Shown here: positions 3,196 through 22,135 of the stretch, one piece after another
How the letters are laid out: each line of letters opens with the position of its first letter
How positions within the stretch are numbered: the first letter of the stretch is position 1
Assembly: GCA_951406725.2 (NCBI GenBank)
Contig: OX597830.1
Location: forward strand, 1,116,001-1,180,000
From: Octopus vulgaris
Taxonomy: Eukaryota
DNA: 64,000 nt
Direction: 5' to 3'
Program-made: the position numbers and the translations under genes
Notes under the pieces: generated by a model
The model's database searches: none
Told to the model about the DNA's origin: nothing
The model's input: the letters and a program-made list of their open reading frames with translations, nothing else

Positions 3196-3676
3196 GAACT
3201 CCCTGGTTTGGATTTGAAAACACTGAAAGCAGGAGCATACCTATTCGGCTTCCCATCGCCTCCGAAGATCTACTCGCAACTAACAGTGCCAGCAAATTCA
3301 AATATGCAAGCGAAGAATTTCTGCTCTCCCCCTTCCAACAGCGTGGGTTAAAATCAACAAACAACATGCTTTTTTTCGGTAAAATCCGAGGCATTAAATA
3401 GAGAAAGATGAATTATAATTTCAACAATTGAGGGTAAAATTAATTAATTAATCAATTTCACCAAGTATTCAGTATGCAAAGGGACCATTTAAGGCGAATT
3501 CAAATTATTACATTATATAAAAGGGCTTAGTAAAATAAATTACTTTGCCGCATACTGAACTCATTAGAAATAGCAAATAAAAAAACTTTTTTAAAACTAT
3601 TTCCAATACTTAAAGAAAATCTCTCTCATATAGTGCTTGTTCAATTCAGTGTTTTCAAATCCAAACCAGGGAGTTC

Positions 3677-3729
3677 TGAGCTGATGATAGAAGTGTCGAG
3701 TTTGACTAATCTTGAAACGTACGTTCTCA
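3677..3729 (+). ncRNA. Type I hammerhead ribozyme motif (element A, copy 2)
   Basis: tgag CTGATGA tagaagtgtcgagtttgactaatctt GAAAC gtac GTT ctca; the same sequence as copy 1 on the opposite strand. Confidence 0.8.
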
Positions 3730-4069
3730 AATAACCTTTGCATTTGATTTTTTAATGTTTCTACCCTCATACTTTCGTGAGTTGAATTGAACAAGCACTA
3801 TATGAGAGAGATTTTCTTTAAGTATTGGAAATAGTTTTAAAAAAGTTTTTTTAGCTGCTATTTCTAATGAGTTCAGTATGCGGCAAAGTAATTTATTTTA
3901 CTAAGCCCTTTTATATAATGTAATAATTTGAATTCGCCTTAAATGGTCCCTTTGCATACTGAATACTTGGTGAAATTGATTAATTAATTAATTTTACCCT
4001 CAATTGTTGAAATATATATATATATATATATATATATATATATAATATATATATATATAAATATATATA

Positions 4070-4340
4070 TCAGAAATATTCAATTCTCTATTTCTAAAGA
4101 TATGTACGGAGGTGGGGCGATATAATGGTTGTATACTGTCAACTTAACGTGACAGTAGGGGATTATATCACCGCTGTTTAGCCCTAGGAAGCGTCGACGC
4201 ATCCTGTTGGCTTCGACACACTTACTGCCTCCTTATATATTTACGAAGGGGAGACAAATACCCCCAACAGCTAGGCCAGCATCTAGAGACACGCATGTTT
4301 CAGGGTCCTTGCCCTTCATCGGTCTAGAGTAGCATTAGTG
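4070..4340 (-). mobile_element. Non-coding hammerhead-bearing element B (~270 bp) in (TA)n
   Basis: Unique-sequence island between TA tracts, with an HHR near its 5' end on the minus strand. Confidence 0.7.
4282..4328 (-). ncRNA. Type I hammerhead ribozyme motif (element B), U4C core variant
   Basis: Minus strand reads UCUAGA-CCGAUGA-AGGG caagga CCCU-GAAAC AUGCGU GUC/UCUAGA. It has a 6-bp helix I, a 4-bp helix II, a self-complementary helix III (ACAUGCGUGU) and a GUC cleavage triplet. Confidence 0.85.
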
Positions 4341-4540
4341 TATATATATATCTATATATGTATATATATATCTCTCTATATATGTATATATGAATATATC
4401 TATCTATATATATGTATATATATCTTTCTCTATACATTTATATATGAATATATCTATCTATATATATGTATATATGAATATATCTATCTATCTATATATA
4501 TATATATATATATATATATATATATATATATATATATGTA

Positions 4541-4753
4541 TCGCCATGTTGATTCGTTAGTTACTGCACGCATTTTTTTTCTCTCCTTCTTTCTGTGTTT
4601 TTTTTCTCTCTGTGTATCTTTCTGTTGAAGAGCGTAGGCTCGAAACGTTAAAGACTTGTTTTATTTATATTTCCTGAGCGCCATACTATTACAATTGTTT
4701 GTTTGTTTTCCACCTGCCTTCGTCTTTTGTCTATTTTCATAAAGCTTCCCGTT
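4541..4753 (+). mobile_element. Non-coding element C (~210 bp) with minimal hammerhead-like motif, in (TA)n; related to 61205-61412
   Basis: Motif at 4617-4654: UCUUU-CUGUUGA-A-GAGC guag GCUC-GAA-ACGU-U/AAAGA. The downstream ttcctgagcg motif is shared with the 61.3-kb insert. Confidence 0.6.
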
Positions 4754-5548
4754 ATATATATATCTCTCTCTATATATGTATATGTCTATATCTATATATG
4801 TATATGTATATATCTATATATATATATATATATATATATATATATATATATCTATATATATATGTATATCTATATCTATATATGTATATGTATATATCTA
4901 TATATGTATATGTATATATGTATATGTATATATCTATATCTATATATGTATATGTATATATCTATATATGTATATATCTATATATGTATATATCTATATA
5001 TGTATATGTATATATCTATATATGTATATATCTATATCTATATATATAAATATATCTATATCTATATATGTATATATCTATATCTATATATATATATATA
5101 TCTATATCTATATATGTATATATCTATATCTATATATGTATATATCTATATCTATATATGTATATGTATATATCTATATATATATCTATATATATATATA
5201 TCTATATCTATATATGTATATATCTATATCTATATATGTATATATCTATATCTCTATATATATCTATCTATATCTATATATGTATATATCTATATCTATA
5301 TATGTATATATCTATATCTATATATGTATTATATCTATATCTATATATATATATATATATATATATATATATATATATATATATATCTATATCTATATAT
5401 CTATATCTATATATGTATATATCTATATCTATATATGTATATGTATATATCTATATATATCTATATATATCTATATATATATATATATATCTATATATAT
5501 ATATCTATATATATATCTATATATATATCTCTATATATATATATCTAT
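4754..5548. repeat. (TA)n/(TATC)n/(TATG)n compound microsatellite
   Basis: Direct inspection. Similar tracts at 6648-7165, 10391-11525, 12391-12686, 14696-14960, 18203-19439, 20930-21300, 21900-22135 and 60400-61460. Confidence 0.98.
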
Positions 5549-19993: not shown

Positions 19994-20027
19994 ATATATA
20001 TATATATATATATATATATATATATAT

Positions 20028-20929
20028 GAGGACAACAACATGCAGTTTAATGCAGGTAAGTTCCAGGCCCTGCGCTACTGGCACACAAAGGTAAATGACG
20101 TGAAGACTGGATACACTGGTCCAGGAAGAATTGCAATCCCTGAGTCAAAATCAGTGCGTGACCTGGGCATTGACATGAGCAATGATGCATCTTTCCAAAT
20201 GCATATTGCTAATCTGGTGATAAAATGCAGACGGCTAGCTGGATGGATTCTCCGAACTTTCAGAACAAGAGAGAAGGAGACACTGATGGTCCTATGGAAA
20301 ACATTTGTCCTCAGCCGCTTGGACTACTGCTCACAACTTTGGTCACCACACAATATAAAACAAACAGCAGAACTCGAAGCAACTCAGAGAAGCTACACAA
20401 AGAAAATCGTCTCAATGCAAAATGTCAGCTACTGGGAAAGACTGAAGGTATTAAACCTCTTCTCCCTGGAGCGGAGGCGGGAGAGATATGCAGTGATATA
20501 CATCTGGAAAATCCTGGAGGGTCTTGTCCCAAACTTTGGCATTCAAAGTAACTCCAACCGCAGAACGGGCGCCGCTGCGTGGTGCCAAGGATTCCAACAT
20601 CACCATCAAAATACAGGTCCAGATACTGCAACAGCTTGGGTTTCAGAGGACCACAGCTCTTTAACATCCTCCCTAAATGCCTGAGAGACTTACATGGTGT
20701 GGATGTGGGTTTCTTTAAAACTAAACTGGATCTCTTCTTGTTGGGAGTCCCAGATGAACCTACCTCACGACAGGAGACACGGATGCGGGCAGCAGCATCG
20801 AACTCCCTTGTTGATCAAGTGCCACGTATCAGAGGTGGATTCACAAACTAGTGTAGCTCATTCAGCGGTGGTGCCCCAGCATGGCCGCGGCCTTCGGGCT
20901 AAAACATTTTTAAGGATTTAAGGATTTAT
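20028..20929 (+). mobile_element. 5'-truncated CR1/L2-group LINE 3' end in (TA)n (third subfamily)
   Basis: MQFNAGKF, VRDLGI, SRLDYCSQLWSP and FSLERRRERYAVIYIWKILEG motifs. Tail ggtggtgccccagcatggccgc.. (tttaagga)x2. Confidence 0.92.
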
Positions 20930-21464
20930 ATCTATATATATATATCTATATATATACATCTATATATATATATATATATATATATATATATATATATATA
21001 TATATATATATATATATATATCTATATCTATATATATATCTATATCTATATATATATCTATATATCTCTCTCTCTCTCTATATATATATATATATATATA
21101 TATATATATATATATATATATATATATATATATATATATATATATATATATATATATATATATATATATATATATATATATATATATATATATATATCTA
21201 TATATATATATATCTATATATATCTATATCTATATATATATATATATCTATATCTATCTATATATATATCTATATCTATATCTATATATCTATATATATA
21301 TAGTGACGTATTTTTGCCATTTCAATATGGCTAACCCTAAGGGTGGATGCTACAGTAGTTTTAGCCCCAGGAGGACACACTCCTCCAGCTGGCCATAGAC
21401 ACACTATCTGTGTCCTGTCAGTATTTGCAAGGGAAGTCATCCTTCCCGTCTTCAACTTATGATA

Positions 21465-21509
21465 CACACGGACTCGAGTTTCGAGGTATTGACCTCTCGT
21501 CAGCGTGTG
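21465..21509 (-). ncRNA. Type I hammerhead ribozyme (element F, left arm)
   Basis: Reverse complement of 21645-21689. Confidence 0.9.
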
Positions 21510-21644
21510 ACAATCATAGTTGTCGCCGAGAATTAGATTTCCTTCACAAATACTTATACTTTTTCCAGCGTCCACTGTCGCTGATATTGAAAAAGTATAA
21601 GTATTTGTGAAGGAAATCTAATTCTCGGCGACAACTATGATTGT

Positions 21645-21689
21645 CACACGCTGACGAGAGGTCAATACCTCGAAACTCGAGTCCGTGTG
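21645..21689 (+). ncRNA. Type I hammerhead ribozyme (element F, right arm), fully canonical core
   Basis: CACACG-CUGACGA-GAGG ucaaua CCUC-GAAAC-UCGA-GUC/CGUGUG. Helix I extends through an internal loop (aacuaugau-ugu / u-aucauaaguu; 21633-21700). Confidence 0.92.
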
Positions 21690-22135
21690 TATCATAAGTT
21701 GAAGACGGGAAGGATGACTTCCCTTTGCAAATACTGACAGGACACAGATAGTGTGTCTATGGCCAGCTGGAGGAGTGTGTCCTCCTGGGGCTAAAAACTA
21801 CTGTAGCATCCACCCTTAGGTGTTAGCCATATTGAAATGGCAAAAATACGTCACGATGTGTTACCGCTACTGTATATAACTCACTTTGATATTTATCATT
21901 ATATATATATCTCTCTCTCTCTCTATATATATATATATATATATATATATCTATATATATATATCTATATATATATCTATATATATATATATATATATAT
22001 ATATATATATATCTATATGTATCTATCTATATATATATATATATAAACACACACACAAACACACATATAAATAAGTATATGTATGTATATATATATATAT
22101 ATATATATATATATATATATATATATATATATATT

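Follow-up and report, generated by a model that had tools for sequence, protein, structure and literature searches.

Tailed and tail-less arms in head-to-head hammerhead-motif insertions of Octopus vulgaris suggest twin priming by a Penelope-type enzyme

The window studied here is a 64-kb stretch within the 2.8-Gb assembly of Octopus vulgaris (GCA_951406725.2, contig OX597830.1, positions 1,116,001 to 1,180,000), and it carries three head-to-head inverted repeats with hammerhead ribozyme core motifs, called A, D and F. In every inverted pair of these three families that could be scored, one arm ends with a Penelope tail and the other without it. It is probable that A, D and F were written by a Penelope-type enzyme with reverse transcriptase (RT) and GIY-YIG domains, which makes two complementary DNAs (cDNAs) from two fixed starts on one template. 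Inversion, tails and the targeting of TA repeats were known before; the pairing of one tailed with one tail-less arm as a strict rule, and its extension to retrozymes, were not met in the literature searched.

Results

We sampled 119 loci in genome order from the first 100 matches listed per motif, namely all 39 F loci there, the first 40 A loci, and for D the first 39 together with a long pair (L209) chosen by hand; L195 and L196, apparently the products of a local duplication, do not count as independent loci. Single head-to-head pairs were found at 77 of the 119 loci. They made up 20 of the 39 F loci (the other 19 in single orientation), 26 of the 40 A loci (with one double and 13 in single orientation) and 31 of the 40 D loci (three of them with arms 1.7-3.9 kb apart, besides two doubles and seven in single orientation). 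A first-pass annotation of the window had set beforehand that an equal frequency of tail-to-tail and head-to-head pairs would speak against its reading, and that reading withstood the test, as not one of the 119 loci held a directly joined tail-to-tail pair. Where copies converged, they were either separate insertions with TA or flank in between (L096, L161) or neighbours from the two palindromes of a double (L150, L205, L207).

The 3' ends of each family fall at two fixed places, separated by 45 nt in F, about 70 nt in D and 94 nt in A, and the interval between them is the Penelope tail. Exactly one tailed and one tail-less arm were present in 74/74 scorable inverted pairs (F 19/19, A 24/24, D 31/31), and the window's A, D and F each follow this rule; had the arms chosen their ends independently, the expectation would be at most 0.5 per pair. 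The pairs left unscored were L113 (F, left end truncated) and L146 and L169 (A, ends not classed). The pairing held in a further 23/23 cases among 29 best-hit D loci. Copies in single orientation were mostly tail-less (16 of 19 in F, 8 of 13 in A). It is scarcely credible that such pairs are two independent insertions placed back-to-back in the same TA hotspot. Many unrelated insertions do lie in the TA runs of the window, and separate copies hundreds of bases apart occur, including tail-to-tail ones across TA or flank, but most pairs have no target DNA between their arms, and the lack of joined tail-to-tail pairs, the one-tail rule and the variants shared by the arms all argue against it.

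The first 22 kb of the window are a mosaic of insertions set apart by long (TA)n runs, in which window self-alignment brings out A, D and F as inverted repeats. Each right arm has its hammerhead core motif on the plus strand and each left arm on the minus strand; the core strands thus diverge, and the 3' ends face outward into TA. Both analyses bear out the first-pass description of three head-to-head repeats with their two 3' ends in (TA)n. That the three insertions are independent, as also proposed there, holds as well, because a 20-nt AT-rich match between A and D is the sole sequence common to any of them. The parts of A (2953-4011, with asymmetric arms), D (19440-19633) and F (21303-21900) are as follows, in window coordinates.

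2953..3648, minus strand: A left arm, made up of about 1.25 units of a tandem repeat (556-559 nt, hammerhead motif); its 3' end, the short one without a tail, is at 2953 in (TA)n
3645..4011, plus strand: A right arm; tailed 3' end, about 94 nt farther along the unit, in (TA)n
3645..3648, no strand: A junction, 4-nt microhomology TTCA
3681..3725, plus strand: A hammerhead core motif (CTGATGA...GAAAC...GTT); minus-strand mirror copy at 3147-3191
19440..19573, minus strand: D left arm with a tail of about 70 nt; 3' end at 19440 in (TA)n
19572..19633, plus strand: D right arm, tail-less, continuing into (TA)n; hammerhead core CTGAAGA at 19578
19572..19575, no strand: D junction AGAT, one substitution off the family's self-complementary AGCT (where hammerhead stem I has its 5' edge and transcription probably starts)
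21303..21596, minus strand: F left arm, from the family with the 353-nt unit; 3' end without a tail, at 21303 in (TA)n; contains a supposed 23-nt spacer
21589..21900, plus strand: F right arm with a tail of about 45 nt (21855-21900); 3' end in (TA)n
21589..21596, no strand: F junction, 8-nt microhomology GAAAAAGT, due to a hairpin that belongs to the unit itself
21645..21689, plus strand: type I hammerhead match to RF00163, 32.2 bits; minus-strand mirror copy at 21465-21509

Some details of the first-pass annotation had to be revised. The TTCA overlap of A was rightly placed, and the element begins at 2953 rather than at 3645. At D, the bases GA at 19573-19574 are present, one base off the centre of the AGCT palindrome, and do not form the 2-nt spacer for which they had been taken. 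The letters of F taken for a 23-nt spacer (21566-21588) belong to the left arm and are F tandem-unit sequence in reverse complement; the real junction is the 8-nt microhomology, and the right arm reaches 21900 instead of stopping at 21854. Loose ends of public-run contigs past 21596 carry on the F unit in 4/4 runs.

Sequencing fold-back chimeras or assembly artefacts are a highly improbable source of these structures. The F junction of the window was not bridged among the 32 pieces listed of 3662. However, chimeras mirror the flanks and equalize the ends, whereas here the flanks differ and the ends are systematically unequal, and 11 joints of F left to right arms, at other positions, were found in contigs of three DNA-type public runs (three samples from two studies, each joint in one contig with 20-30 letters on the short side; one of the runs may be from the source sample).

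Exact motif counts in the assembly were 455 for F, 1978 for A and 5999 for D, which are matches and not insertions. F and A are non-coding tandem arrays with units of 353 nt and 556-559 nt, respectively. F copies are 99% identical genome-wide, and in the three A arrays compared the units differ by 0.4% within arrays vs 4% between them. The arm 5' ends of A recur near unit positions 130-139 and 155-157 (L134, L137, L138, L155, L159, L166 and window position 3648), possibly as RNA ends or RT pause sites. D, in contrast to A and F, showed no short tandem arrays in 40 loci; it forms the terminal part of a longer element, non-coding and with a body rich in microsatellites. A coding parent of D was sought in the long copies L195, L196 and L209, all of which proved non-coding; their bodies of 3-4.5 kb are rich in microsatellites and include an A-related head-to-head insert.

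RF00163 of Rfam matches the F ribozyme on both arms with an E-value of 1.6e-5, its score being below the 34-bit gathering score, and the Rfam search found nothing at the gathering threshold. The microRNA matches obtained at the E-value threshold merely reflect the palindromes. No Rfam hammerhead match was obtained for A and D, and their putative ribozymes rest on the core motifs and, for D, also on a pairing check, by which the predicted stems pair and the variation lies in N7 and loop II. Minimum-energy folds of A or D did not give the hammerhead fold; such folds commonly miss the hammerhead for motifs of this kind. A and F are arrays of the retrozyme type without long terminal repeats (non-LTR), and D is a non-coding Penelope-like terminal repeat.

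The lengths of the arms vary widely. They differ by more than 50 nt in 18/19 F pairs and by up to 3 kb in A pairs. The tailed arm is the shorter one by more than 50 nt in 11/19 F and 8/24 A pairs, and the longer one by as much in 7 F and 6 A pairs; since a copy cannot outreach its template at either end and either arm may be the shorter, neither arm can always have been the template. Arms with no sequence in common were found at L205, in 15 D matches (13 of them cleanly TA-flanked by eye) and in 8 A matches (by eye 5 terminal and 3 internal to arrays). The divergence of A arms is 1.4% when they belong to the same locus and 4.6% when they belong to different ones (25 loci; none of 10000 permutations was as low), and the D ribozyme variants match between arms in 20/21 pairs vs 34% expected, so both arms come from the same template type.

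Unequal arms would also be left if palindromes were symmetric at insertion and were later reshaped by central deletions. Palindromes are unstable, and some arrays do show internal rearrangements (L097, L100, L106, L150). We nevertheless regard this course as very unlikely, as the F copies are nearly identical genome-wide and still differ in arm length in all but one pair, the arms of A differ by up to 3 kb, and the one-tail rule is left unexplained.

The D family points to where its RNA may begin. The commonest D junction is the perfect palindrome GGAAGCTTCC (5/27 close pairs in the position-ordered set), in which both arms begin at the A of AGCT with a 4-nt overlap. Of 54 D arm 5' ends in the 27 close pairs, 17 lie at this A and 33 at positions 0 to +5. 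AGCT opens hammerhead stem I, and TATAAAT begins at -29 in three diverged D upstream types. Because the 5' ends cluster at AGCT and the TATAAAT lies at this distance, transcription of D likely starts at the A of AGCT. Short D copies are without the TATA box. The hairpins of the arms fold in silico; the long double-stranded RNA that, in the first-pass annotation, might feed siRNA or ADAR pathways would need read-through from outside, because any promoter within the element should direct transcription outward from the centre.

Both flanks are strictly TA at 13/20 F and 16/26 A inverted loci, and only 1/99 inverted loci has non-TA DNA on both sides. The full structure also occurs outside TA, at L116, where 12 bp of the target are duplicated; at L265 the duplicated stretch is about 16 bp long and lies in a TA run with interruptions. 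These two duplications indicate staggered nicks on both strands. A third candidate, L124 (with L116, 2/99 matches), was out of register and was rejected by eye. The TA repeat is thus a preference, not a requirement.

Several unrelated families in the window, fragments of long interspersed nuclear elements (LINEs) included, have (TA)n as their common target. LINE fragments that are 5'-truncated and have short tandem 3' ends in (TA)n lie at 5550-6645, 8403-10390, 11525-12388 and 20027-20926. Hammerhead-like repeats with variant cores (CCGATGA, CTGTTGA) sit in single orientation in the same TA runs at 4060-4338 (minus), 4541-4760 (plus) and 19660-19992 (plus). Two copies of an APE-RT LINE face each other across a TA run, at 12687-14693 (plus) and 14962-17500 (minus), with 883 bp in common at 96.6%; the left copy begins abruptly at TA, and the minus-strand copy has an upstream open reading frame (ORF) at 15946-16755 and 87-nt tandem repeats. 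The segment 1-747 is presumably a decayed mariner-like transposase fragment, and 7167-8368 we take to be a LINE 3' fragment with a Cys-rich C-terminal domain.

The genome also has an intact Penelope-like family, with a 781-aa frame containing RVT_1 and GIY-YIG, which sits in TA runs and has a 40-nt tail. Of its loci, 19 were examined, chosen for their long frames; three were inverted, and all three showed one-tail pairing. Open frames of 781 aa hold 17 of the 150 listed GIY-YIG matches. A young intact element (L241:2594-7572) has a 479-aa frame overlapping the 781-aa RT and GIY-YIG frame, an atypical hammerhead-like motif and, before GIY-YIG, a Cys motif. This family has no pseudo-long terminal repeat (pLTR) in common with A, D and F, and intact proteins of Penelope-like elements (PLEs) of this genome gave no tblastn match to A, F, D or the window at E<1e-3. 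A, D and F lack the ORF with RT and GIY-YIG that marks an autonomous PLE with endonuclease (EN+ PLE). What they do have are the marks of a non-autonomous Penelope-like insertion unit, namely tandem or head-to-head repeats of the pLTR type, a tail at one end and an AT-rich or (TA)n target.

Discussion

We propose that the enzyme would act as a dimer whose two RT sites rest on the RNA at the two starts, 45 nt apart in F, about 70 nt in D and 94 nt in A. It would nick both target strands, and each nicked strand would prime one cDNA. The two cDNAs would stop independently or run off the 5' end of the RNA, to be joined 3' end to 3' end through microhomology or end joining and then filled in. A single surviving cDNA would give a copy in single orientation, mostly tail-less. 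In D, RT would start internally near the RNA 5' end and most cDNAs would run off at the transcription start, so that two AGCT ends could pair to form a perfect palindrome. Twin priming with the cDNAs joined 5'-to-5', as suggested in the first-pass annotation, gains from the one-tail pairing, the shorter tailed arms and the arms without common sequence. The cause it had put forward, the self-complementarity of (TA)n, is unneeded: L116 has the same structure at a non-TA site, which implies that two nicks, rather than the TA repeat, are what matters.

In twin priming of L1, both target strands prime cDNA, the products are joined at microhomology and the target is duplicated; there the second primer anneals within the RNA, at sites that vary, and the two arms have no overlap. 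The insertions described here resemble those of L1 in short junction microhomology and, at two loci, in target duplication, and would resemble them in two-strand priming. In contrast to L1, both starts are fixed here and the arms usually duplicate the same sequence.

A closer parallel is an anole PLE of the Poseidon group (PAc, Anolis), for which the accessible text of PMC11167929 reports that both target strands are nicked and extended in vitro, that two RT start sites bound the tail, and that a dimer is predicted. PAc thus has two fixed starts bounding a tail, uses both strands, prefers AT-rich targets and needs no homology between target and RNA, as would be the case here, and that part of the paper makes no link to inverted insertions.

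The main alternative is a self-priming fold-back, in which a cDNA snaps back, or an antisense RNA primes itself, to form an inverted duplicate; trimming or resolution by the endonuclease, at a different fixed site on each end, would then leave one tail. Its parts have been brought forward for PLEs, self-priming in the Discussion of PMC3846280 and a tail arising through EN-mediated resolution in PMC8557442, as far as their accessible text goes. Variants common to both arms and the frequent perfect palindromes of D junctions would be expected from it, and the F junction of the window does lie within a real hairpin, with 8 nt of microhomology and a 23-nt loop. Most F junctions, however, have a 0-3-nt overlap or untemplated bases (overlaps range from -3 to 8 nt, 17/21 are at most 4 counting inserts, and the window's 8 is the longest of 21). 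In addition, the loop-bearing arm of the window's F is the tail-less one, and its copy would need a longer precursor to give a tail. Arms without any common sequence also speak against a copy made by folding back. We consider the fold-back unlikely, and together the one-tail rule, the variable identity of the longer arm, the shared variants and the non-overlapping arms are better explained by twin priming than by a simple fold-back.

Several observations weigh against two-strand priming from fixed starts. Near co-terminal A pairs (arms within 10 nt) are 9/24 against 1.1 expected (0/19 in F), and such ends fit hairpin formation as well as two cDNAs running off one RNA end; still, the loops of the co-terminal A junctions are mostly 0-3 nt or untemplated, which is poor for snap-back priming. 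Non-overlapping arms are rare (15 matches vs 5999 D core-motif matches), a search for them in F gave 0 matches, and later central deletions could account for them or for unequal arms. F is too young to be informative on arm identity, with 0.8% divergence both within and between loci. Among the 40 of 150 listed GIY-YIG loci that were compared, no nucleotide sequence was common to A, D or F and an autonomous partner, with the exception of separate nested A-, C- and F-like insertions. The accessible text of PMC11167929 holds no test of differing starts on the two strands of one target, and all our evidence comes from finished insertions.

With EN+ PLEs (PMC8557442, PMC3846280, in the parts accessible) A, D and F share the head-to-head arrangement, the tail at one end, the hammerhead motif, the (TA)n targets, the junction overlaps and the palindromes; unlike them they have no ORF. 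PMC3846280, in its accessible text, calls head-to-head the most frequent arrangement, which agrees with the first-pass statement that inverted pLTRs are common in Penelope, treats the tail as optional on one inverted pLTR and proposes self-priming. The corresponding part of PMC8557442 describes an inverted 5'-truncated copy, a tail often at one end only and (TA)n targets, with the mechanism left open. The tails of D (about 70 nt) and A (94 nt) are longer than the 30-40 bp given there for EN+ PLEs, and while these papers have the tail as optional, here it is on exactly one arm of every scorable pair. Neither twin priming for PLE inversions nor a strict one-tail rule was found in the literature, subscription papers and supplements aside.

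Retrozymes are described as tandem hammerhead repeats tied to PLEs in what is accessible of PMC7229834 and bioRxiv 10.64898/2026.07.22.740005. Like these metazoan non-LTR retrozymes, F and A consist of tandem non-coding units, each with one putative type I hammerhead motif, while the A unit (556 nt) exceeds the quoted 150-450 bp. The main text of these papers has no inverted arrays or tails, whereas the arrays of A and F carry the end signature of PLEs.

A wider proposal, to which we give slightly less than even credence, is that twin priming is the default integration step of Penelope, a dimer using its two fixed RT starts on one RNA, one for each nicked strand, with the inverted pLTR and the one-sided tail as one signature. 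Retrozyme arrays would then be written in one event by a PLE enzyme instead of growing afterwards, and the thousands of D mini-palindromes would be paired run-off cDNAs that end where transcription starts. The origin of the inverted repeats and tails of PLEs is a question that PMC8557442 itself, in its accessible part, names as open. For the in vitro system of PAc, the one-tail rule predicts a different start on each strand of one and the same target. These results would tie animal retrozyme arrays to the Penelope machinery by the anatomy of their insertions and not by sequence similarity, and would identify a source for thousands of short palindromes in the genome of this octopus.

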